Positions 496 to 64,000 of a DNA stretch of 64,000 nt are shown here, piece by piece. The first letter of the stretch is position 1, and every line of letters begins with the position of its first letter. This DNA comes from an uncultured Gammaproteobacteria bacterium (lineage in GTDB: Bacteria > Pseudomonadota > Gammaproteobacteria > Poriferisulfidales > GCA-002705445), in the NCBI GenBank assembly GCA_913031205.1, contig CAJWEM010000001.1, positions 32,723-96,722 of the forward strand, written 5' to 3'. The notes beneath the pieces were generated by a model, which was not told the origin of the DNA, did no database searches, and was given only the letters and a program-made list of their open reading frames with translations. The position numbers and the translations under genes were made by a program.

Positions 496-1437
496 CTATT
501 TCTCGTCTTTTTTGGTTGTTGCTTTTTTGGTTGTTGCTTTTTTGGTTGTTGCTTTTTTGGTTGTTGCTTTCTGTGCAGCTGAGCCAGATGATACAGGCTC
601 AGAACTTAATTTTACCTTTTCATCTAAATCATTAGATTTTTCTTGCGATACTTTTTTCGTGGTCTTTTTCTTTTTCACGATAACTTTTTCGTCTGAAGCA
701 TTTTTTGCAGATGCTTCTTTTAACTCATCTTCAGTTACAACTGGTTTCTGAGTTTTCAAGAACTCTTGTCCTTTTGATATTGCATTTGAAATTTGTTTGC
801 AATATAAGTCTATTGCTCTCATAGAATCATCATTGCCTGGGAAAAAGTAATCAATATTTTCAAAGGAATTATTGGTATCGACAACGGCAATAATTGGTAT
901 ATTTAATTTTATTGCCTCTTTCACAGCAATATCTTCATAACCTACATCGATAACGAATAGTGCATCTGGGATTGTCTTCATCTCTTTTATGCCGCCCAAA
1001 CTATTATTTAATTTTTCAATTTCTCGCGACTGAAGTAATTGCTCTTTTTTCGTAAGCTCTTGATTTTCCTTAAAAGACTCCTCCTCTAACGCTTTTAATC
1101 TTTTTATCGATTGTCTAACTGTGTTAAAGTTAGTTAACATTCCTCCAAGCCACCTGTGATTAACATAAGGCATATTACAGTTATTGGCAGATGAAGAAAC
1201 ACTATCTCTAGCCGCTCTTTTTGTGCCAACAAATAAAATTTTTCCGCCCTCAGACGCTATCTTTTCAGCAAAGGAACATGCGTCCTTCATTAAAGGTACT
1301 GTCTTCTGAATATCAATTATATGAATATGGTTTCTGTTACCATATATGTACGGTGCCATTTTTGGGTTCCAATAACTGGTCTGATGCCCAAAATGGACCC
1401 CTGCTTCAAGCAAAGCTGCAATGCTAATATCTGACAT
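496..1437 (-). CDS. rpsB: 30S ribosomal protein S2 with a lysine/threonine-rich C-terminal extension (313 aa)
   Basis: N-terminus MSDISIAALLEAGVHFGHQTSYWNPKMAPYIYG is a canonical S2 signature. The C-terminal ~70 aa are low complexity, with (KKATT)x4. Confidence 0.95.
   Translation of the reverse strand: MSDISIAALLEAGVHFGHQTSYWNPKMAPYIYGNRNHIHIIDIQKTVPLMKDACSFAEKIASEGGKILFVGTKRAARDSVSSSANNCNMPYVNHRWLGGMLTNFNTVRQSIKRLKALEEESFKENQELTKKEQLLQSREIEKLNNSLGGIKEMKTIPDALFVIDVGYEDIAVKEAIKLNIPIIAVVDTNNSFENIDYFFPGNDDSMRAIDLYCKQISNAISKGQEFLKTQKPVVTEDELKEASAKNASDEKVIVKKKKTTKKVSQEKSNDLDEKVKLSSEPVSSGSAAQKATTKKATTKKATTKKATTKKDEK
507..571. repeat. Perfect 15-bp tandem repeat cttttttggttgttg x4 plus a partial copy, in-frame inside the rpsB 3' end (encodes KKATT x4)
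   Basis: Directly visible at 507-566 with a partial fifth unit to about 571. Confidence 0.9.
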
Positions 1438-54562: not shown

Positions 54563-55303
54563 TTAATTTGTTTTCTCTAGTTCTTGCGCCCATTTTGCAA
54601 GATGTCTTTTCTCACGAGCATTATCAACCTGATTTCTCGATGGGCTAAAAAATAACCCAGGTGCATGTAACAATTTACTATATGGGAAAATTATCATTAA
54701 AAAAGCAACCATTACCAAATGAGAAATCAACACAAGGTCAGCTGGAATATTTTGTATATTAAATGTTAACAATCCTACAAAAAAAGATTTGACACTTATA
54801 ACATCAGCCCCAAGATAAAAACTCATTGCCATGCCTGTGGTTGTTATGCATAAAAGCAAAACTAAAATTAAGTGATCTGACGGAGCTGAAATATATCGAA
54901 CTCTATCTACAACTATTCTCCTCGCAAGTAATCCAGCTAATCCAACTAACATCAATATTGAGCCATATTTTCCAAAAGGTTGAATAATTACGACCCAAAA
55001 CCAAACGGGATCAATAAAATATCTCAGGTGTCTTAACATGTCTAAAAATAAACCAAAGTGAAAAAGCCAGCCAAACAACCAGGTGATCTTACTTGACTTA
55101 AAAAGGCTTTCAAAAAAAACAACCTCTTTAGACATTCTAAAAACAACACCCGCCTGCGTCGTAGGAGCAGGCATCGTTGGAATTTTAAGGGGCGCGGGCG
55201 TATTTTTGTATTGTAGAATTTTTACTACAAGACCGTACGCCAAAATAAAAAAAGCTATATAAAATAATGCAGCTATTGAAAAACTTAACATTGATATCTG
55301 CAT
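54563..55303 (-). CDS. dsrM: DsrM, NarI-like dihaem b membrane subunit
   Basis: 246 aa with 5-6 TM helices and conserved His in the helices (HFGLFLDMLRHLRYF; HLVMVAF). Confidence 0.85.
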   Translation of the reverse strand: MQISMLSFSIAALFYIAFFILAYGLVVKILQYKNTPAPLKIPTMPAPTTQAGVVFRMSKEVVFFESLFKSSKITWLFGWLFHFGLFLDMLRHLRYFIDPVWFWVVIIQPFGKYGSILMLVGLAGLLARRIVVDRVRYISAPSDHLILVLLLCITTTGMAMSFYLGADVISVKSFFVGLLTFNIQNIPADLVLISHLVMVAFLMIIFPYSKLLHAPGLFFSPSRNQVDNAREKRHLAKWAQELEKTN

Positions 55304-55319
55304 ATCCTACACTTCTACT

Positions 55320-55652
55320 TTATACGCAACCAGTTGGCTTAGGTAATCCTGCATATTTACAAGCTTGTTTAGCAGGTCCATATGGAAATAATTCATAAAG
55401 ATATTTACTATTTCCTTTATCTTTACCTAGTTTTTTACCAATTTGTTTTGTTAATACTCTAACAGCTGGAGCAATTTGGTATTCCTCGTAATACTCACGA
55501 AGAAAGTTAATTACTTCCCAATGGTTTTCTTCTAAAGGAGCACCATCTATTTCAGCCATTTTATTCGCGACATCGGTATCCCAGTCATTTAAATTTGCTA
55601 GATATCCTTCTTCGTCGACTTCGTATTGTTTACCATTTACTTCTAACGACAC
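55320..55652 (-). CDS. dsrC: DsrC, with both conserved C-terminal cysteines
   Basis: 110 aa. The C-terminus ...KQACKYAGLPKPTGCV carries CysB and the penultimate CysA of the flexible arm. Confidence 0.92.
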   Translation of the reverse strand: MSLEVNGKQYEVDEEGYLANLNDWDTDVANKMAEIDGAPLEENHWEVINFLREYYEEYQIAPAVRVLTKQIGKKLGKDKGNSKYLYELFPYGPAKQACKYAGLPKPTGCV

Positions 55653-55678
55653 ATTAACCTCCGGTTATTAAAAAAAAC

Positions 55679-55987
55679 TTATAGCCAAGATTGAACAGTT
55701 TTATGTTCAGTAGTTAGATCTACGAATTCGTCGTATCCAACTATCTCGACACCCTCTATCACATTATTTAAAGATAAGCCTCTTGCCTCCAAATCAGGTT
55801 TAAGGACATACATTTTAAATTCTTTTAAAGCATTTTCGATTAACTCTGAAAATTTTGTAGACTTCATGACCGATATCACGCCGTCTTCAATAAATAAAAT
55901 ACTGCTATCTTGAGAACACATTGCAATGCATGAAGACATTGTAGAATTTTCAAAAGGCGATTTGTTAATTGTGTGTAGCATATTCAT
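55679..55987 (-). CDS. dsrH: DsrH (sulfur relay, TusB-like)
   Basis: 102 aa. Positioned between dsrF and dsrC. DsrE/F/H fold by size and order. Confidence 0.8.
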   Translation of the reverse strand: MNMLHTINKSPFENSTMSSCIAMCSQDSSILFIEDGVISVMKSTKFSELIENALKEFKMYVLKPDLEARGLSLNNVIEGVEIVGYDEFVDLTTEHKTVQSWL

Positions 55988-55996
55988 ATTTTTTCT

Positions 55997-56413
55997 CTAA
56001 AAACTCAGGACAACATCTTGATTATTCATAATTTCTGATAACTCAGCTCTTGATACTAAGTTTATAGAGCTTTTTTCAGCATAATCTTCGTCTTCATCTT
56101 CCCAAACAAGCTCTTGTAGATCAGATAATGATAGACCTCTTTCTTCTAAGGATTCTTTATCGATAAATATTTTATTAATCTCGTAATCTCCCAATGCTGA
56201 GTATGTAGAAGAGAAATTCTTCATGCCTATGCCTTCTGTTTGCTGGCCTTTCATAAGCTGGTAAACTCCATCATCAGTAAATGTTAAGCTTACGTCTTGA
56301 TCAAATGCCGCAGTTATTAAAACAACTTCTAAAGATTCAAGTGCATAGATTGTCCCGTAAGGACTTTTTCTATTTACGTACATAAACTTTTTTACAACTC
56401 CATCTTCACTCAC
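55997..56413 (-). CDS. dsrF: DsrF (TusC-like)
   Basis: 138 aa. Sits in the dsrE-dsrF-dsrH order. Confidence 0.8.
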   Translation of the reverse strand: MSEDGVVKKFMYVNRKSPYGTIYALESLEVVLITAAFDQDVSLTFTDDGVYQLMKGQQTEGIGMKNFSSTYSALGDYEINKIFIDKESLEERGLSLSDLQELVWEDEDEDYAEKSSINLVSRAELSEIMNNQDVVLSF

Positions 56414-56417
56414 TTAT

Positions 56418-56810
56418 TTAATCTCCAAAAGTAATTAATCTATCTGCTTGAATTCCGGCCTCAACTAACTGTCCGAGCCCTGATATCCTAAAACCATCCT
56501 CAATGTTATCTGAGTCTTTGCCATTTCTTTCGGCCTCGCCTTTATCAAGGATTCCTCTTCTTTGAGCTGCCGCAACACAAACTACTAAATCAATCCCATG
56601 GTCCTTTGCTAAGGAGGCCCATTCTTTTGTAATATTTCTATCGTCTTGAGGTGGCGTAGCTAATCTTGTTGCATTATTAACACCATCATTATAGAAAAAC
56701 ACTCTGTATATTTCGTGACCTTTTTTTAAAGCAGCTTTAACATATTGAAGAGCTGTATCTGATGCTTGATGTTGGTATGGTCCTTCATTGATTAATATTC
56801 CTAATTTCAA
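56418..56810 (-). CDS. dsrE: DsrE (TusD-like, active-site Cys)
   Basis: 130 aa with MKLGILINEGPY and a conserved Cys in DLVVCVAAAQRRG. Confidence 0.85.
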   Translation of the reverse strand: MKLGILINEGPYQHQASDTALQYVKAALKKGHEIYRVFFYNDGVNNATRLATPPQDDRNITKEWASLAKDHGIDLVVCVAAAQRRGILDKGEAERNGKDSDNIEDGFRISGLGQLVEAGIQADRLITFGD

Positions 56811-56830
56811 AATATCTCCTCACTATTTTA

Positions 56831-57919
56831 TTAAAACCTAATGTGTGTTGAAGCATTAAGACTGTTTCTTGCTCCTTTCCAGTTATTGATATGGAATTTT
56901 GTGAATGGAAGACCTGTTAACTCAAAAAATCTTGGCCATCCTATTCTTTCAACCCAGTCACTAATTCTCTCCCAATCTCTGGCATCATCTCTATATGCTC
57001 TTAGTATTTTTTTTACAATCGCAGTAGCTTCTGGCCACCTTGGTGGATTATTAGGTATTCCCGCAGCAACTAATTTCTGAAAAGAAGGTTTGCCTCTTGC
57101 ATTAGAATGGTTTCCACCTACCCATACGGATAATTTTGTATGCTCTGCATCATTAATCTGCATTGGAGGACATGGAGGGAAACAAGCTCCACAACAAATA
57201 CATTTTTTCTCATCGACTTCTAAGGAAGGTTTTCCATTCACTTGTGCTGGTCGAATAGCTGCAACTGGACATCGAGCAACTACAGAAGGTCTCTCACAAA
57301 CATTGGAAACTAAATCGTGATTAATTTTTGGTGGCTTTGTGTGTTGAACATTAATAGCAATATCGCCTTGTCCACCACAATTAATCTGACAACAAGATGT
57401 AGTCATGTGAACTCTGTTCGGCATATTCCAACCTTTAAACTCATCTATTACTTCATCCATCATTGCTTTTACAACACCGGAAGCATCTGTTCCAGGTATA
57501 TCACAATGCAACCAACCTTGCGTATGAGAAATCATTGCAACTGAGTTTTTAGTTCCGCCAACAACGAAACCATTTTTTTCTAACTCTACAATCAATGGTC
57601 CGACTTTTGATTCTTGGTCGATCATATATTCGATATTACTTCTTATGGTAAATCTGACATAACCGTCAGCATACTTATCACCAATGTCGCATAAGATGTT
57701 TAGAGAAGTTACATCTAAAATTCTTTGAGTGCCTGCTCTCACAGTCCATATTGCATCACCACTGTGCGCAACATGCTTTAGTACTCCAGGCCTTGGATCT
57801 TCATGATATGCCCATTGCCCGTAGTTTTTGCGCATTACAGGATGCATATATTGAAATGCGTCTGGGCAACCGGATTCTATCGGTGGTCTATTTGCTTGCT
57901 CTGCTTGCTGTTCTGACAT
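56831..57919 (-). CDS. dsrB: dissimilatory sulfite reductase beta subunit (reverse/oxidative type)
   Basis: 362 aa with siroheme/Fe-S Cys motifs and a ferredoxin insert (CCQINCGGQGD, CPVAAIRP, CICCGACFPPCP). Confidence 0.92.
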   Translation of the reverse strand: MSEQQAEQANRPPIESGCPDAFQYMHPVMRKNYGQWAYHEDPRPGVLKHVAHSGDAIWTVRAGTQRILDVTSLNILCDIGDKYADGYVRFTIRSNIEYMIDQESKVGPLIVELEKNGFVVGGTKNSVAMISHTQGWLHCDIPGTDASGVVKAMMDEVIDEFKGWNMPNRVHMTTSCCQINCGGQGDIAINVQHTKPPKINHDLVSNVCERPSVVARCPVAAIRPAQVNGKPSLEVDEKKCICCGACFPPCPPMQINDAEHTKLSVWVGGNHSNARGKPSFQKLVAAGIPNNPPRWPEATAIVKKILRAYRDDARDWERISDWVERIGWPRFFELTGLPFTKFHINNWKGARNSLNASTHIRF

Positions 57920-57951
57920 CTTTCTCCCTTATTATGTAAATATTTTTGTTC

Positions 57952-59208
57952 TTATGCTTTTGCCGATGATTGAAGTTTATCCTTAAACCATTTCTCAGCT
58001 TCGTCATCCCATCCATCCATACGAACATAGGAACTAGTTGTAGGATCTGCGACCATGTTTGGATCAACATCAACACCAATGCCGTCGAGGAAATTAACAA
58101 GACCAATTCTTTCAATCATTTCACCACAACGCTCGTGTTCTAGTCCATTTTCAGCCCAGAAATCGATTGTTTCTTCGGCTAGCTCAGTAAGTTTTTCGTA
58201 ATCTTCTTCTGTATCAAGTTTCATGAACGGAATAATAACTGTACCCATTAAGTCACCAACTTTAAGTGTTCTCTTGCCGCCCATTAATATTGTTGCTCCT
58301 TTGTCATCCCCAGGACTTAATGCTTTCGGCATTACATTTAGACAATGCATACACTTAACACAATTTCTATTATCTACTTCGAGTGTGTCGTCGTCGTTGA
58401 GTGATAAGCAGTTTGTTGGGCATCTTGTAATTACATTATCAATTACATATTTTCGTCCTTTTGTCTCAACAAAATCTTTAACTTCATCTTGATCAACTTT
58501 CATATCATCTCGCCAAGTCCCTATAATCGCACAGTCTGCTCTTTCGATAGAGTTAACACAATCGTTTGGACATCCGGAAACTTTAAATTTAAATTTATAA
58601 GGCAATGCTGGTCTATGAACATCATCGGTAAAATTATTGAGAAGAGTTCTATGAATTTTAATTTCGTCTATATTGGATTGCTCACATCTTGCAGCACCAA
58701 CACAACACATGCCCGTTCTAACGCATGGTCCAGCACCACCAAGATCCCAACCATACTCATTAATTTCATCAAAAAAGTGTTGGGTGTTTTCAGTTGTAGA
58801 ACCGATAAACATGATATTACCAGTTTGACCATGGAAAGTTTGTAAGCCCGAGCCATGCTTCTCCCAACTTTCGCCAAGTTGTCTTAACATGTCAGTCGTA
58901 TAATAATTTCCGGCTGGAGGTTGTACTCTTAGAGTGTGGAATTCTTTTGATTCTGGAAAAGCATCTCCTACTTCGGAGAAACGAGGTATAATACCACTAC
59001 CATATCCAAACACACTTACAGTTCCGCCTTTCCAATAACCTTTTCTCGTTTCGTAAGAATGTTCCAATTGGCCAAGCAATGAGTTTGCCATGCCAGAAAT
59101 TCTTTCATTAGGATGTTGATCACGTAATCTTTTAAAGCCGGAAATGAAACTAGGCCATGGGCCGTGCTCCAGCTCATCTAACATTGGGGTTTTATGTTTA
59201 TCCGCCAC
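57952..59208 (-). CDS. dsrA: dissimilatory sulfite reductase alpha subunit (reverse/oxidative type)
   Basis: 418 aa with CVRTGMCCVGAARCE siroheme-[4Fe-4S] coupling cysteines and a ferredoxin domain (CPNDCVNS; CPTNCLS; CVKCMHC). Confidence 0.92.
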   Translation of the reverse strand: MADKHKTPMLDELEHGPWPSFISGFKRLRDQHPNERISGMANSLLGQLEHSYETRKGYWKGGTVSVFGYGSGIIPRFSEVGDAFPESKEFHTLRVQPPAGNYYTTDMLRQLGESWEKHGSGLQTFHGQTGNIMFIGSTTENTQHFFDEINEYGWDLGGAGPCVRTGMCCVGAARCEQSNIDEIKIHRTLLNNFTDDVHRPALPYKFKFKVSGCPNDCVNSIERADCAIIGTWRDDMKVDQDEVKDFVETKGRKYVIDNVITRCPTNCLSLNDDDTLEVDNRNCVKCMHCLNVMPKALSPGDDKGATILMGGKRTLKVGDLMGTVIIPFMKLDTEEDYEKLTELAEETIDFWAENGLEHERCGEMIERIGLVNFLDGIGVDVDPNMVADPTTSSYVRMDGWDDEAEKWFKDKLQSSAKA

Positions 59209-59415
59209 TCTATTCTCCTTACATTATCATTATATTTATCTCCAGATAATAATATTTTATGGGTTATTTTTAGGTAATGACATCGTACCTTTGGGAGGGC
59301 GGTTATATCTCTTTTGAACTTTGTCTCATATCTCTATATGGATATAACTTAAAATGCTCGATTTTTGTAAATCATTGAATATATAATCAATTAACTTTAT
59401 CAAATTTAAAATCAA

Positions 59416-60300
59416 ATGTCATATAGTCATAAAATTAATTCTCCTTTTCTACTTGAGAACGAAACAGATTATAAAAAATGGCGTAATGAAAAACTTTCAC
59501 TATATCCAGAGAGTATTTCAAATCTTCTTATTCAACTTAATAAAGACAGTTTGTTATTGAACGATTTAAATAGTATAAAAAAAATTATTGGAAAATATAA
59601 TTTTGCGGTTTACGAATTTAACTCAAAAATCGATGATGAATTTTTGCAAGAATTTTGTAAGAAACTTAAACTTATTGAGTCGGTATCAAATCCTTTATCA
59701 GATATAAATAATATTTCGAATATTACAGACAATTCAGCTTTTAAAAGTAATAACAGTAACAAAACTGAATATATTCCTTACACAAACAAAAAACTGAACT
59801 GGCATACGGATGGTTACTACTACCCAATAGATATTTCTGTAAAGTCTTTTTTACTTCACTGTGAAAGCCAAGCTGAACAAGGCGGGAGAAACTTTCTTAT
59901 AGATCATGAAATTATTTATATATTTCTTAGAGATCATAATCCTGATTACATTGATATCTTAATGCAAAAAGACATTATGGAAATTCCTAGAAATAAAAAC
60001 ATAAAAGATAGTAAAGCTATAAAAGGACCTGTATTTTATATTGATAAAGATGGTAGTCTAAATATGAGATTCACATCAAGGAAACAAAATATTATTTGGA
60101 AAAAAGATGATATTATTAACGATATTAAAAGATTCATAGAAAGTTTTATTAACGATGATAAAAGGTATATTTTTGATTTGTTGCTTAAAGAAAACCAAGG
60201 TTATATAGCTAATAATATTTTACATAGGCGTGAGGAGTTCAATGATGGTAAGAAAAAAAGACTGCTTAAAAGAATACGTTTTTTGAATCGAGTGAGCTAA
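59416..60300 (+). CDS. TauD/TfdA-family Fe(II)/2-oxoglutarate dioxygenase-like protein
   Basis: 294 aa with an HxD facial-triad motif NWHTDGYYYP and a distal HRR (ANNILHRREEF), spaced as in TauD-family enzymes. Confidence 0.6.
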   Translation: MSYSHKINSPFLLENETDYKKWRNEKLSLYPESISNLLIQLNKDSLLLNDLNSIKKIIGKYNFAVYEFNSKIDDEFLQEFCKKLKLIESVSNPLSDINNISNITDNSAFKSNNSNKTEYIPYTNKKLNWHTDGYYYPIDISVKSFLLHCESQAEQGGRNFLIDHEIIYIFLRDHNPDYIDILMQKDIMEIPRNKNIKDSKAIKGPVFYIDKDGSLNMRFTSRKQNIIWKKDDIINDIKRFIESFINDDKRYIFDLLLKENQGYIANNILHRREEFNDGKKKRLLKRIRFLNRVS

Positions 60301-60303
60301 AAA

Positions 60304-60495
60304 ATGTTAACACTGAGTGAAATTTTAATAACAGAATATAAGATGAAGTCCTATAAGGAGCTTAGAAATTTTATATTAAAGAAAATAGATGAAGGCGAGA
60401 GGTTCCTGTCTATAGATATCAAACCAAGTTTTGAAGATACTCCCGACCATTGGGAAACCGATTTAGAAAACTTATTTACCTCACCAAGAAATTAA
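60304..60495 (+). CDS. small hypothetical protein (63 aa)
   Basis: Starts 3 bp after the TauD-like stop and ends 4 bp before the next gene, so it is embedded in the operon. No motif. Confidence 0.4.
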   Translation: MLTLSEILITEYKMKSYKELRNFILKKIDEGERFLSIDIKPSFEDTPDHWETDLENLFTSPRN

Positions 60496-60499
60496 GCTT

Positions 60500-61180
60500 A
60501 TGTATTGGGAAGACGATGATCAAGAGAAGCAAAAGAAATCTAGTGAAAAAATCGTAGATATATCTTTTAAAGTAAATTGCAATAAAATTGCAGCTGATCA
60601 TGCATACGATTTATTTCAAGCTGTTTCAAAAAGATTCCCAAAGATTAATACTATTGATAATTTAGCTATTCACTCCGTTTATGGGGCAGAATCTGGTGCG
60701 GGATGGGAAAGACCAGAGACAGAAATTTACCTTTCAAAACGAACTCGATTTTGTATTCGCACACCTATTGAGCATTCTGAAGAATTTCATGATCTTAATG
60801 GAGAAACTTTAAAAATTGGAAAATATGAAATGTCATTTTCGAAGCCAACAATCAAAAAGTTAGGAATAACCGACACGCTATTTTGCAGAACAGTTGTTGT
60901 TGAAAATAATAATAGCGAAGAAGAATTCCTGAAAGATGTAAGTTTATCCTTAGCTGAGATGAGTATCAGTGTTAAAAAAATGCTTTGTGGAAAAGAGCAT
61001 ATTATTCAAACTCCAAATAAGGCATTAGTCGGAAAAACCCTTCTAATAACTGACCTGGAGAAACATGACTCAATTAAATTACAAGAGCTCGGAATAGGTA
61101 TTGGAAAATTATTTGGATGTGGTATCTTTTTACCTCATAAAAGTATAGCTCCTGTAGCTATCTCGAAAAGTAATGAATAA
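60500..61180 (+). CDS. orphan Cas6-like RAMP protein (no CRISPR array or other cas genes in window)
   Basis: 226 aa. The C-terminal glycine-rich loop GIGIGKLFGCGIF fits the Cas6 consensus GhGxxxxxGhG exactly, at the expected position about 20 aa from the C-terminus. The N-terminus has a beta-strand followed by a His-containing helix (IVDISFKV...AADHAYDLFQAV), like the Cas6 catalytic-His region. Confidence 0.5.
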   Translation: MYWEDDDQEKQKKSSEKIVDISFKVNCNKIAADHAYDLFQAVSKRFPKINTIDNLAIHSVYGAESGAGWERPETEIYLSKRTRFCIRTPIEHSEEFHDLNGETLKIGKYEMSFSKPTIKKLGITDTLFCRTVVVENNNSEEEFLKDVSLSLAEMSISVKKMLCGKEHIIQTPNKALVGKTLLITDLEKHDSIKLQELGIGIGKLFGCGIFLPHKSIAPVAISKSNE

Positions 61181-61203
61181 CATAATTTGTCAAGGAGGTT
61201 AAA

Positions 61204-61545
61204 ATGCCAACAATCGAAATAGCAGGAAAACAAATTGAAACAACAGACATGGGATACTTGATTAACGCCGAAGATTGGTCCGAGGACTTAGCCAAAGAAA
61301 TCGCAGCAAACGAAAAATTGGAATTAACCGAAAGGCATTGGGATGTAATCAACCATTTGAGAGATGAATTTTTTAATAATGGCGGTAATCAACCTAATAC
61401 GAGAAAACTTTGTAAATACTTTGAAAAACTTTGGGGTGAAAAAATTGATGCAAAAGTTCTTTATGATCTTTTCCCTGGGGATCCAAGCAAACAAGGTGGA
61501 AGAATATCTGGTTTACCAGAAAGCCGAAGAAAAGGTGGGTACTAA
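61204..61545 (+). CDS. DsrC/TusE-family paralog lacking both catalytic cysteines
   Basis: 113 aa. It aligns along its whole length with the dsrC at 55320-55652 (GKQ.E....GYL.N..DW..D.A..IA......L.E.HW.VIN.LR......G..P..R.L.K......G.K......LY.LFP..P.KQ....SGLP). The C-terminus is ...KQGGRISGLPESRRKGGY, so CysB and CysA are replaced. Confidence 0.8.
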   Translation: MPTIEIAGKQIETTDMGYLINAEDWSEDLAKEIAANEKLELTERHWDVINHLRDEFFNNGGNQPNTRKLCKYFEKLWGEKIDAKVLYDLFPGDPSKQGGRISGLPESRRKGGY

Positions 61546-61622
61546 ATAACTCAATATAATTGTTGTAGATTTTTTACACTAATTTGGGATATTATATATC
61601 CATAGTTTATATGGGGTGGATT

Positions 61623-61829
61623 ATGAGTGAAGATAAACAAGAGAAAATAAAAAAACTTCTCGCGATGCAAAAAAAATTTATTGCACTGGATCGAGAACAA
61701 GGTGTCGAAGCGTCTGAGTATTTTTCTCCGGATGACGATTCTGAAATAGCGGGATTTAGAGAAGAGTATAGGGATTTGGCAATGGATATTGTTGACCTTG
61801 CTCACAAAGACAAGGGCTCTAAAAAATAA
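61623..61829 (+). CDS. small acidic hypothetical protein (68 aa from ATG at 61623; track ORF starts at upstream TTG)
   Basis: MSEDKQEKIKKLLAMQKKFIALDREQGVEASEYFSPDDDSEIAGFREEYRDLAMDIVDLAHKDKGSKK, preceded by a GGGGTGGA purine-rich RBS. Confidence 0.45.
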   Translation: MSEDKQEKIKKLLAMQKKFIALDREQGVEASEYFSPDDDSEIAGFREEYRDLAMDIVDLAHKDKGSKK

Positions 61830-61833
61830 AAAA

Positions 61834-62154
61834 ATGTATGAACTTACAGTCATTCTCGGCGAGAATGAGTACCCTCTTAAAATAAAAGAAGCTATCGTAA
61901 ATGAGGCAGGGTCGTTTTTTGAAAAAATGGATTCAGATATGAATAAAGGCTGGCAAATGAGTAAAAATTGGGTTGAGAATCCAAGCCAATTTCAAAAATG
62001 CCAAATTGTTGCAGATCGTTTATTTACTTCAATACATCTTAATAAAAAGAAAACTGCTATTATGATGGCAGCTTATATAATCAATCAAATGCCAAATGTA
62101 AAAATTATTGATATTGATATTTCTGGAAATATGGAAGAAACTTCTTTTTCATAA
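61834..62154 (+). CDS. hypothetical protein (106 aa from ATG at 61834)
   Basis: MYELTVILGENEYPLKIKEAIVNEAG... starts 5 bp after the previous stop. No motif recognised. Confidence 0.45.
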   Translation: MYELTVILGENEYPLKIKEAIVNEAGSFFEKMDSDMNKGWQMSKNWVENPSQFQKCQIVADRLFTSIHLNKKKTAIMMAAYIINQMPNVKIIDIDISGNMEETSFS

Positions 62155-62727
62155 CTAAGCAAAGACAACCCAAGTAGTTGCTATATATTTTTTACCACTA
62201 ATTACTTCTTTACCTCTATGCTTATGCGTCCAGAAAGGCGGGAAAAGAATCAACTTGCCTGTTTCTGGTTTAATACTGACATCCTGATAAAAAAATTCTG
62301 TTCCCCCGCCTTGGTCTTCACTTAGATCATTCAAGTAAAAGATCGCGACCAACTGTCGATAACTAAATTCATGACTGCCTCCATCAATATGCCAATGGTA
62401 AAATTGGCCTGGCTCAGTTCTTTGAATCGCATAACCCATGTCTTTGAAAGGCCCTTGAAAAAACTCAATTTCTCTTTTTAATCTTGCCAAAGATTTTGCT
62501 AAAACAGTAAAAAATAGTTTATCTACTTCTTTCCATTCTTTTTTACCGCTAATAAATAAATCTGTAGACTTTTTAATATTCAAATCTTCGTCTAGATTCT
62601 GCCCGATCTTACCTTGATAATGCTCGTCTTTGTTTTGCTCAAACAAATCTATAATAGTCTTACAATCTTGCTTATCAATTGCATTATCAAATTCAAATAT
62701 AAAAGTATTTGGCTTTATCTCTTTCAT
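62155..62727 (-). CDS. prolyl-4-hydroxylase-like Fe(II)/2-oxoglutarate oxygenase (small, 190 aa)
   Basis: HxD...H triad region YHWHIDGG...FWTHKHRGKEV, characteristic of the P4Hc/2OG-FeII_Oxy_3 fold. Confidence 0.65.
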   Translation of the reverse strand: MKEIKPNTFIFEFDNAIDKQDCKTIIDLFEQNKDEHYQGKIGQNLDEDLNIKKSTDLFISGKKEWKEVDKLFFTVLAKSLARLKREIEFFQGPFKDMGYAIQRTEPGQFYHWHIDGGSHEFSYRQLVAIFYLNDLSEDQGGGTEFFYQDVSIKPETGKLILFPPFWTHKHRGKEVISGKKYIATTWVVFA

Positions 62728-62774
62728 TCGTAATAATATATAATGTATTGAATTAATTTATTTAAAAGTCGTCA

Positions 62775-63329
62775 ATGAGTATACAAAGAATACATAGCGG
62801 TTGGAATCAAAAAGGTAAAAAAAGGCAGATTGGTCAAATTGCAAGTGCGTTGGCGGTTAGCATATGGAAAATATCAAAAAAAACTCTTCTGAATTTGGAA
62901 AATGAAGGATTTGATACTGACACATGGACAGATAGAATTGAGATACTTAGAGAAATTTCTTGTTTTCAAGTATACGTAACGATAAATGAGATAACTGGTT
63001 TTGATGACGAAAGAAAAATCGATTTTATTACTGATATTGCAAAGAAACTTAATGAAACAATAAATATAAACCAGGTTGATCTTAAAATCCCAAAAGAAAA
63101 TATTAAGGTAAAATTTATAAATCTTTTAAATGAAAGGATGGATGAATATACTGCGCTTGAATATAAAGATGAGCCAAGTTACAAAGCTAGCATAATTTTA
63201 GGTAATCATCTGATGCAACATATGGGTGAACTTGATAATAATTGGATTCGCATGTATGTAATTGATCAAGAGGTTCCAAAAATTTTGCAATCTCTTAGGC
63301 GCCCGATCAAGTCATTAGTTAATAAATAA
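62775..63329 (+). CDS. hypothetical protein (184 aa)
   Basis: Clean ORF. No recognisable motif. Confidence 0.4.
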   Translation: MSIQRIHSGWNQKGKKRQIGQIASALAVSIWKISKKTLLNLENEGFDTDTWTDRIEILREISCFQVYVTINEITGFDDERKIDFITDIAKKLNETININQVDLKIPKENIKVKFINLLNERMDEYTALEYKDEPSYKASIILGNHLMQHMGELDNNWIRMYVIDQEVPKILQSLRRPIKSLVNK

Positions 63330-63331
63330 GC

Positions 63332-63529
63332 CTATTTTTTCTTCCAATCGCCAATATTGGCTAAGTTATTCTCTTGGCCGTCCTCATAACCAGCATCATA
63401 TGCTTCGTTTGTTCTTTGCTCTTCTCTAGGAGGGTGTCCTAGAAACCCACCCTGCCAGCCGAGAATATATTCCTCGTCAACATCTTGTTCTTCCATTTTA
63501 ACAATGGCATTTCTATATGTTTCATTCAT
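63332..63529 (-). CDS. small acidic hypothetical protein (65 aa)
   Basis: ORF only. Acidic (EEQDVDEEY..EDGQEN). Confidence 0.3.
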   Translation of the reverse strand: MNETYRNAIVKMEEQDVDEEYILGWQGGFLGHPPREEQRTNEAYDAGYEDGQENNLANIGDWKKK

Positions 63530-63567
63530 AATATTTTCACCTTACTTTAATAAATATTTTATCAATT

Positions 63568-64000
63568 TTATTTTTTAAAAGCATTATAAAAAAATTCTTT
63601 TGCTTTTCCACTATCGATAGCCTTCTTAACTTGTTCAGCTGCACTAGTAAAACTAATTTGCTTTACAATTGATAAAGCCAAGGAACCAGTATAAATTAAC
63701 GTATCTTTTGCGGGCCCGTCTTCACCATTTAAAGCCTTAATTCCAATATCTGCAGCTTTTTCTGAAAAGTCTTGAACATTGATATCGCTTGAGATTTCAT
63801 CCAATTTAATTTCCTCAACTTTTTCTAATTCGGGTAACGGAACTGCTCTCATATTTTGAATAATTGAAATCTCTTTGGCATTAAATTTTGTGTCTTGCAT
63901 TTCACTGTTATCGACATAATAAAAAACTTTACCATCACCTCTTAAAGATGGAGAAACCCCACCTTCAACTCCTTTTACTAATATTGCGGAATCAAAGCCC
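63568..64000 (-). CDS. TrpD-family (glycosyltransferase family 3; TrpD2/YbiB-like) protein, C-terminal part; 5' end lies beyond window
   Basis: The track ORF starts at the internal Met at 63900. The same frame continues upstream to the window edge with no stop, reading ...GFDSAILVKGVEGGVSPSLRGDGKVFYYVDNSEMQDTKF... This and the C-terminal ...ALSIVKQISFTSAAEQVKKAIDSGKA resemble the middle and C-terminal regions of the TrpD domain in the trpDC gene at 26204. Confidence 0.55.
   Translation of the reverse strand, partial: GFDSAILVKGVEGGVSPSLRGDGKVFYYVDNSEMQDTKFNAKEISIIQNMRAVPLPELEKVEEIKLDEISSDINVQDFSEKAADIGIKALNGEDGPAKDTLIYTGSLALSIVKQISFTSAAEQVKKAIDSGKAKEFFYNAFKK

Follow-up and report, generated by a model that had tools for sequence, protein, structure and literature searches.

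Why a protein of the Cas6 family should be encoded beside the genes of reverse dissimilatory sulfite reductase (rDsr), with no clustered regularly interspaced short palindromic repeats (CRISPR) in its vicinity, is the question raised by a block of genes that diverges from dsrAB in a 64,000-nucleotide stretch of contig CAJWEM010000001.1, here called the window, from an uncultured gammaproteobacterium of the GTDB order Poriferisulfidales. In an original prediction, made from the DNA letters, the block was placed at 59416-62727 and said to hold a TauD-like dioxygenase, an orphan Cas6-like RAMP protein, a DsrC paralogue without cysteines, several small proteins and a second oxygenase of the prolyl 4-hydroxylase type (P4H-type). 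Comparison with related loci showed that the window holds one copy of an accessory set which is widespread and conserved among sulfur-oxidising Proteobacteria and lies divergent from their reverse-dsr operon.

Conserved synteny with the dsr operon

Related loci, cited below by L numbers, were collected in two ways. For set 1, one genome per GTDB species was scanned with the peptide CGIFLP[HY]K, which gave 173 relatives, and 80 loci were kept; for set 2, an independent retrieval from metagenomes with the peptide CGLF[VI]PHK gave at least 563 relatives, and 80 loci were used. Window proteins were compared with these loci by tblastn, and gene counts for set 1 take only loci with enough flank. Taxon names in the titles of set 1 records are Thiothrix (in the title of the single-amplified and metagenome-assembled genomes closest to the window), Thiotrichaceae, Cocleimonas, Leucothrix, Poriferihabitaceae, Porisulfidus, Oxydemutatoraceae, Sedimenticola, Ectothiorhodospiraceae and Chromatiaceae, with Halochromatium glycolicum among the last. 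CACNYJ010000001.1 carries the related locus closest to the window (98% identity).

The order that recurred in these loci was dsrC-H-F-E-B-A on one side and, divergent from it, TauD-s63-Cas6-RspA-s68, with s106, the P4H-type gene, u184 and a gene of the Alvin_2107 family farther downstream. Among loci with enough flank, dsrA was found upstream in 56/63 of set 1 and 17/23 of set 2, and the TauD gene, dsrQ, was present in 58/67 and 29/39, respectively. The Cas6-like gene was immediately preceded by that for s63 in 63/80 loci of set 1 (by clustering) and in 51/51 of set 2. Within set 1, the RspA-type gene, which encodes the DsrC paralogue, was present in 59/70 loci, s68 in 44 of the 64 with enough flank (56/80 by clustering, as cluster 6), s106 in 32/80 (by clustering), the P4H-type gene in 34/54, and u184 and the Alvin_2107-family gene in 35/54 each. 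Nearly all loci holding both dsrA and dsrQ had them divergent, mostly with a spacer of about 110-570 bp.

That both sets, each of 80 loci and retrieved independently, show one and the same order is more than chance. That an accessory set is tied to rDsr, as had been proposed, is therefore upheld by comparative genomics, in which the genes are linked and not scattered. The end of the block at 62727 did not hold: the conserved set extends on to u184 and the Alvin_2107-family gene, at the frequency given above.

Parts of the set also occur on their own. In ten loci (L022, L024, L025, L031, L088, L089, L092, L098, L101 and L108) s63 and the Cas6-like gene were found as a pair, and for 7-8 kb around it there was no gene of dsr, RspA or either oxygenase; since the pair stands alone there, it is taken to be the core unit. 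In L024 it sits between aroK-aroB and a ParA-like gene. The three genes for s63, the Cas6-like protein and RspA were kept in four loci that lack DsrQ (L021, L057, L068 and L078), and both DsrQ and the P4H-type gene are missing from the last of these, a Halochromatium locus (Chromatiaceae, purple sulfur bacteria). The two oxygenases, like u184 and the Alvin_2107-family gene, are lineage-dependent add-ons and not core, a point on which the original prediction needs correcting.

Some lineages carry genes that the window lacks, namely c32, which encodes a 237-aa protein without a family and lies between s63 and the Cas6-like gene, and a gene for a DUF6866 protein (PF21739/PF21740) beside u184. Such insertions were seen in L015 (7292-7999 and 11162-12277), L082, L085, L096 and others. 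In L083, L086 and L093, dsrE lies upstream of s63 and divergent from it, with dsrC beyond dsrE in L086 and L093; no dsrAB or DsrQ was detected between dsrE and s63 in these three loci, and about 0.7-0.8 kb there is without assignment.

Proteins of the block

The 226-aa protein matched the Pfam profile PF09559 (7.7e-55, 186 bits, cut-off 26.7) and TIGR02807 ('type I-MYXAN Cas6/Cmx6'; 124.8 bits, trusted cut-off 98.85). An AlphaFold2 (AF2) model built from 53 homologues, with a predicted local distance difference test (pLDDT) score of 85.8, contained two ferredoxin-like/RRM (RAMP) domains. The top Foldseek matches to this model were Cas6 of a type I-B CRISPR-associated transposon (CAST; 8fcj_B/8fcu_B, E 1e-15, template modelling score 0.76-0.83), followed by Pyrococcus Cas6 and Cse3/Cas6e, and at E<=1e-3 only Cas6, Cse3 and Cmr RAMPs were returned. 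CAST Cas6 8FCJ was also retrieved by a profile search of PDB sequences (E 3e-24). The identities guessed for the TauD-like, Cas6-like, cysteine-less DsrC and P4H-type proteins were all confirmed by profile and fold searches, and the structural kinship of the 226-aa protein with Cas6 was found as proposed; assignment to a family outside the RAMPs, together with unlinked genes, is contradicted by Cas6 profile scores above the cut-offs and by the conserved synteny.

With chain B of 8FCJ/8FCU the window protein shares the double ferredoxin-like RAMP fold, a G-rich loop followed by CG(I/L)F, equivalents of R87 and R130, and a length of about 220 aa. It differs from that protein in an 8-residue SGNGWxRP insertion, an MxWxEE peptide, PHK after the loop and a near-neutral isoelectric point (pI), and from the Cas6/Cmx6 family in that its gene is syntenic with dsr and has neither a CRISPR array nor cas neighbours.

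Conservation was scored in an alignment of 146 sequences, made up of 145 cluster representatives (50% identity) and the window protein. The G-rich loop GhGxxxxxGhG, which is G198-I-G200-IGKLF-G206-C-G208 in the window, kept each glycine in 137-140/146 sequences (~95%). Near-invariant positions were W69 (144), R81 (145), R87 (144), E140 (144) and K214 (138), and also R130, while residue 34, at the start of helix 1, was His in 130/146 (89%) and Tyr in 11/146 (7.5%). The subclade is marked by the N-terminal MxWxE(D/E), a peptide conserved in the alignment yet disordered, by His34, by the SGNGWxRP insertion (residues 65-72), by the G-rich loop and by PHK. In an exhaustive profile search with the protein, 1614 clusters (50% identity) reached E<=1e-3, and 289 of them E<=1e-30. 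The triplet [N/H/S]GW was present in 146/148 top cluster representatives, and because it lies elsewhere in the protein in 3 of them, the insertion itself is present in ~143. From these residue counts, the group is a large, strongly constrained subclade and not a decaying relic.

The s63 protein (pI 4.8) has 3630 homologues and carries the motif ML.LSE...GE.F..D.KP.F.DTP..WE..LE..F. Its AF2 model (pLDDT 89.9) gave no fold match, and its sequence gave no match in Pfam, NCBIfam or PDB. Homologues P0281, P0404 and P0425 are labelled 'sulfur relay protein DsrC' in NCBI/UniRef records; since s63 has no Pfam or NCBIfam match and no visible resemblance to DsrC, this label looks like a propagated misnomer.

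The RspA-type protein matched PF04358 (2.8e-31, 108.5 bits, model positions 1-102 of 107) and aligned over its full length with the DsrC of the operon. In DsrC, the C-terminal arm contains CysA as the penultimate residue and CysB ten residues upstream; the 113-aa protein has neither (arm KQGGRISGLPESRRKGGY, compared with KQACKYAGLPKPTGCV in the operon DsrC). It ends in ...GLPESRRKGGY, where DsrC ends in ...GLPKPTGCV, and its arm is 2 residues longer. More than 60 syntenic orthologues likewise lack both cysteines, and all end in ...PSKQ..GLP...RKGGY-COOH. The protein therefore cannot carry a persulfide or trisulfide. Its arm is as constrained as that of DsrC though it serves no sulfur relay, and must therefore dock somewhere; because the RKGGY tail is kept in the four loci without DsrQ, it is not simply a DsrQ substrate.

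According to PMC8477390 and PMC9371685, which quote Venceslau et al. 2014, relatives of DsrC without cysteines make up the RspA class. The block protein agrees with this class, presumed in the quoted passages to be regulatory, in having the DsrC fold without both C-terminal cysteines, and the subgroup to which it belongs differs in its longer arm, its invariant RKGGY and the position of its gene directly after the Cas6-like gene. In Methylovirgula HY1, according to the relevant passage of PMC9371685, a CysA-less DsrC-like protein (MHY1_00075) is encoded three genes from TauD/DsrQ (MHY1_00078), with dsrAB at 00079-80. Such spacing matches an RspA-Cas6-s63-DsrQ order, in which the two middle genes would be those for the Cas6-like protein and s63.

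DsrQ matched PF02668 (9e-17, 62 bits), and its motif WHTD...H...R was kept in 62 orthologues, with WHTD, NN.LH.R and the C-terminal Arg each conserved in at least 95%. Against NCBIfam equivalogs it came near no cut-off, the best being gamma-butyrobetaine dioxygenase (41.9 bits against 414.75), and its sole match among PDB sequences was marginal (E=9e-4). The P4H-type oxygenase matched PF13640 (2OG-FeII_Oxy_3; 1e-14) and has a conserved HxD...H motif; the closest solved proteins were the prolyl 4-hydroxylases 5c5t and 3itq (E ~3e-5). With these motifs in place, both enzymes are probably active. The domain and the HxD...H motif are shared with bacterial and viral prolyl 4-hydroxylases (5C5T, 3ITQ, 5HV0) and with PiuC-type oxygenases; the window enzyme differs from prolyl 4-hydroxylases, to which it is only distantly similar, in its linkage to the dsr block (34/54 loci).

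The name dsrQ, according to quotations in PMC7596348 and PMC9371685, was given by Lenk et al. 2012 to a tauD-like gene that lies beside dsrA and diverges from it. The window gene is like it in gene family and in position and orientation relative to dsrA; in the quoted passages dsrQ is treated alone, without s63, Cas6-like or RspA genes. A remark attributed to Lenk et al. in PMC7596348 places dsrQ in (facultatively) aerobic chemotrophs, and the absence of DsrQ from the Halochromatium locus and from the corresponding gap in Allochromatium vinosum fits this remark.

In A. vinosum, a published gene table lists a 'CRISPR-associated protein, Cas6-related' (Alvin_1248) three genes from dsrA (Alvin_1251), with only two hypothetical genes (Alvin_1249 and Alvin_1250) between them and no DsrQ or P4H-type gene. 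Orthology was assigned by annotation and synteny, not by sequence. The position relative to dsrA is the same as in the window, the order would be s63-c32-Cas6 by comparison with L078, and RspA, unlike in the window, is not adjacent. Published expression values put Alvin_1248-1250 at 1.1-, 0.97- and 0.90-fold on pyrite versus sulfide, with dsrA at 0.04-fold. When elemental sulfur was compared with sulfide, in array data re-used from Weissgerber 2013, the three genes rose 12.5-, 6.3- and 17.7-fold and dsrA was at 0.24. These fold changes show three expressed genes that vary in concert and with the sulfur source, but out of step with dsrAB.

A Cas6-like gene in a dsr context was not discussed in the searchable literature, a scope that does not include the full text of Lenk 2012, Venceslau 2014 or Weissgerber 2013, and the same literature held nothing relevant on Alvin_1248, 1249 or 1250 or on Cmx6 with DsrC. 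In papers that contain both Cas6 and dsrAB or DsrC, Cas6 appears only within ordinary CRISPR sections. The original prediction had called the combination previously undescribed and not a known cassette, which is too strong for dsrQ, RspA and the Cas6-related Alvin_1248, all parts that already have names. Undescribed so far are the large CRISPR-independent Cas6 subclade with invariant motifs of its own, its tight pairing with s63, and the RKGGY C-terminus of RspA.

Gene layout and the divergent promoter region

Coordinates of the block and of the adjoining genes are collected in Table 1.

Table 1. Positions of the block genes, dsrAB and flanking genes in the window
Feature	Position	Strand	Remarks
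dsrB	56831-57919	-	ORF list; tblastn 75-100% identity to DsrA/DsrB in related loci
dsrA	57952-59208	-	ORF list; tblastn 75-100% identity to DsrA/DsrB in related loci
Divergent intergenic region dsrA/dsrQ	59209-59415		207 bp
DsrQ, TauD-superfamily Fe(II)/2-oxoglutarate dioxygenase, 294 aa	59416-60300	+	PF02668
s63, acidic 63-aa protein	60304-60495	+	3-bp spacer before; no family match
Cas6/Cmx6-family RAMP protein, 226 aa	60500-61180	+	4-bp spacer before; PF09559, TIGR02807
RspA-type DsrC/TusE-family protein, 113 aa	61204-61545	+	23-bp spacer before; PF04358
s68, acidic 68-aa protein	61623-61829	+	77-bp spacer before; internal ATG of open reading frame (ORF) 61584-61829
s106, 106-aa protein	61834-62154	+	4-bp spacer before; MD.D...GWQM motif
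P4H-type Fe(II)/2-oxoglutarate oxygenase, 190 aa	62155-62727	-	PF13640; convergent, zero spacing to s106
u184, 184-aa protein	62775-63329	+	kept in related loci; no family
Alvin_2107-family small protein, 65 aa	63332-63529	-	NF049856

The minus-strand operon begins with dsrA (start 59208) and continues with dsrB, dsrEFH, dsrC, dsrMK and more. Six plus-strand genes had been placed about 200 bp upstream of dsrA and divergent from it, in agreement with the 207-bp spacer. Spacers of 3, 4, 23 and 5 bp had been given for them; the first three are right and the last is 4 bp, and the 77-bp spacer before s68 had gone unmentioned. The operon-like spacing of 3, 4 and 23 bp counts for a joint unit of the block genes. 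The G+C content was ~0.39 in dsrAB and 0.25-0.35 over the block. The transcripts of s106 and the P4H-type gene probably overlap, since their stop codons abut at 62154/62155 with no spacer and no predicted terminator. Searches of Pfam and NCBIfam gave no family match for s68 or s106, and u184 had no relative in Pfam or PDB; the Alvin_2107-family protein matched NF049856 ('globule sulfur oxidation') at 92.9 bits (cut-off 60).

At the edge of the window, ORF 63568-64000 (minus strand, listed as 110 aa) covers the C-terminal portion of a TrpD-like protein of glycosyltransferase family 3, 368 aa long, that runs past the window end; the full-length gene is present in L001 (11067-12173), and the gene adjoins the block in 22 loci. 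Far from the block, ORF 496-1437 (minus strand) contains a perfect 15-nt tandem repeat at 507-570 (4.3 copies of CTTTTTTGGTTGTTG).

A sigma70-like dsrA promoter was predicted in the divergent spacer, with a -35 box ATGTCA at 59283 and a -10 box TAAAAT at 59254-59259; the promoter and terminator scan was at background level. The palindrome TTATCTCCAGATAA (TTATC-N4-GATAA) occupies 59236-59249, past the predicted -10 box and ahead of the ribosome-binding site of dsrA; it is the only exact match in the window and not enriched when one mismatch is allowed. Of 10 aligned SUP05-like loci, 9 have both TTATC/GATAA half-sites intact and L012 has them partly altered, and the sequence on either side varies. 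The palindrome is a plausible candidate for an operator of the divergent dsrA/dsrQ promoters, and it is the one candidate put forward for a site to which RspA might bind if it acts on DNA. AT-rich near-palindromic motifs (TATATTAGAATTTTCCAATAT; CATATTAGAAA) recur upstream of rspA and dsrA in L058, L065, L067, L070, L072-L074, L077 and L080, and this recurrence hints at a possible site for a shared regulator.

RNAalifold, applied to the dsrA-dsrQ spacers of 10 close relatives, found a fold of -10.5 kcal/mol in which hardly any positions covary; in the window itself the best hairpin is disrupted. The Cas6-to-rspA spacers of other loci gave variable folds and had only promoter-like AT-rich motifs in common.

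Competing explanations and meaning of the block

No CRISPR array was found in the 64-kb window with Tandem Repeats Finder, or in the window and 160 related loci (1.67 Mb in total) with a k-mer scan, in which the sole match was a 109-bp tandem repeat. PADLOC matched only two proteins of the block, the Cas6-like protein (Cas6 models) and the P4H-type oxygenase ('CAS-associated 2OG', that is, 2-oxoglutarate; PDLC01653, E 1e-19). A defence system was rejected, there being no array and no other cas gene in the window, as had been noted for the Cas6-like gene beforehand, or in the 160 loci. It is accordingly very improbable that the block is a relic or orphan piece of CRISPR-Cas or of another defence system, or a chance juxtaposition without joint function. 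Such an origin would account for a 'type I-MYXAN Cas6/Cmx6' score beyond the trusted cut-off, for the use of that name in public records and for the two PADLOC matches, but the gene order is kept over 160 loci from two independent retrievals, at identities down to 30-40%, and the clade-specific residues are invariant; by its synteny it is effectively refuted. Earlier surveys of CRISPR-linked genes may have caught the dsr neighbourhood through mis-named Cas6.

RNA as the ligand, a regulatory role and a coupling of the block to O2 are what we infer from these findings. The favoured reading, put forward tentatively and with a substantial though less than even chance of being right, is that the block has a regulatory function and that its Cas6-like protein works on RNA. 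Its more specific form, in which a domesticated Cas6 subclade and s63 make up a dedicated RNA-level regulator of rDsr, with RspA and the oxygenases feeding in sulfur and oxygen status, is possible and on balance doubtful. The block would then be regulatory and not catalytic for sulfur chemistry. The Cas6-like protein, having kept the RNA-binding architecture of Cas6, would bind and perhaps cleave a specific transcript and so tune dsr or other sulfur-oxidation genes; s63 would be its acidic modulator, and RspA a sensor or adaptor partner acting through its helix-turn-helix-like face or its C-terminal arm. Through the oxygenases the module would respond to how much O2 is available, for instance if a partner protein were hydroxylated; the P4H likeness points to a protein as substrate, and a conserved proline of the RspA or DsrC arm is one possibility. 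Grimm et al. (2010/2011) reportedly found that DsrC binds dsr promoter DNA and that DsrR and DsrS exert post-transcriptional control of dsr; such findings would fit a regulatory module.

Several observations weigh against an action on RNA. No candidate target RNA for the Cas6-like protein was found by Rfam search or spacer folding, the Rfam search covering 55000-64000 with no match to an RNA family at E<=1. The intergenic spacers of dsr and of the block in this genome are mostly 3-30 nt, the longest inside the block being 77 nt. As RNA, the palindrome would form a weak 5-bp A-U hairpin and looks more like a DNA operator. His34 is a candidate catalytic residue only, since Asn takes its place in 8FCJ, the solved Cas6 closest to the protein. 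As far as is known, canonical Cas6 enzymes have a basic pI; this clade is not basic, with a median pI of 6.4, a net charge of -2 and a pI >7.5 in only 72/253 members. The clade-specific features (the disordered, acidic N-terminal MxWxEE, the SGNGWxRP loop and the frequent Cys27/Cys207) would fit protein-protein contacts and RNA equally well.

The same features could be read as those of an accessory complex at the protein level, a possibility that deserves some credence without being likely. The Cas6-like protein would then be a scaffold or adaptor with no RNA function, acting with s63 and RspA on DsrAB, DsrC, DsrEFH or sulfur-globule proteins so as to control, protect or assemble the sulfite-reductase machinery; the RspA arm, for example, might fill a partner's pocket as the DsrC arm does. 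This would agree with the near-neutral to acidic pI of the clade and the very acidic s63, with the conserved terminal motifs MxWxEE (Cas6-like), ML.LSE (s63) and RKGGY-COOH (RspA), with the frequent Cys27 and Cys207 and with His213 in the Cas6-like clade, with neighbours that are all small proteins linked to sulfur oxidation, including the Alvin_2107 family, and with the retention in RspA of the DsrC fold and of the arm length plus two residues. It agrees less well with the retained G-rich loop and invariant Arg/Lys, which are typical of RNA binding by Cas6, or with the ten loci in which the s63 and Cas6 pair is found away from dsr, and the positive RK of the RspA tail seems ill-suited to the anion-binding channel of DsrAB. 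Unlikely is an operon for organosulfur catabolism, in which DsrQ would be a sulfonate dioxygenase freeing sulfite from an intracellular or ambient sulfonate and the other genes would assist. DsrQ does belong to the TauD superfamily, has an intact Fe/2-oxoglutarate motif and lies directly beside dsrA in 58/67 loci, and release of sulfite from sulfonates by dsrQ is a speculation published in the passages of PMC7596348 and PMC9371685 that treat the gene. Against this, DsrQ approaches no equivalog and its PDB match is marginal, the block has no transporter or sulfonate-pathway gene, the core of s63, Cas6-like protein and RspA is kept in the four loci without DsrQ, and the proposal accounts for one gene of nine.

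The Cas6-like subclade, whose motifs occur in at least 146 clusters (50% identity) and which may reach about 289 if the bound of E<=1e-30 is taken, passes the curated 'type I-MYXAN Cas6/Cmx6' threshold without a link to CRISPR. Its members are systematically mis-named in genomes, and this can bias surveys that look for orphan cas genes or 'CRISPR-linked' neighbours. We know of no described Cas endoribonuclease that has been recruited into core energy metabolism. Regulation of rDsr is poorly understood, and the block is the set of unknown genes most consistently linked to dsr, with a counterpart (Alvin_1248-1250) in the genetically tractable A. vinosum. The host lineages (SUP05-like clades, sponge symbionts, Thiotrichaceae and Chromatiaceae) are the dominant sulfide oxidisers of oxygen-minimum zones, sediments and symbioses, and an O2-coupled dsr switch, if true, would bear on their behaviour at oxic-anoxic interfaces.

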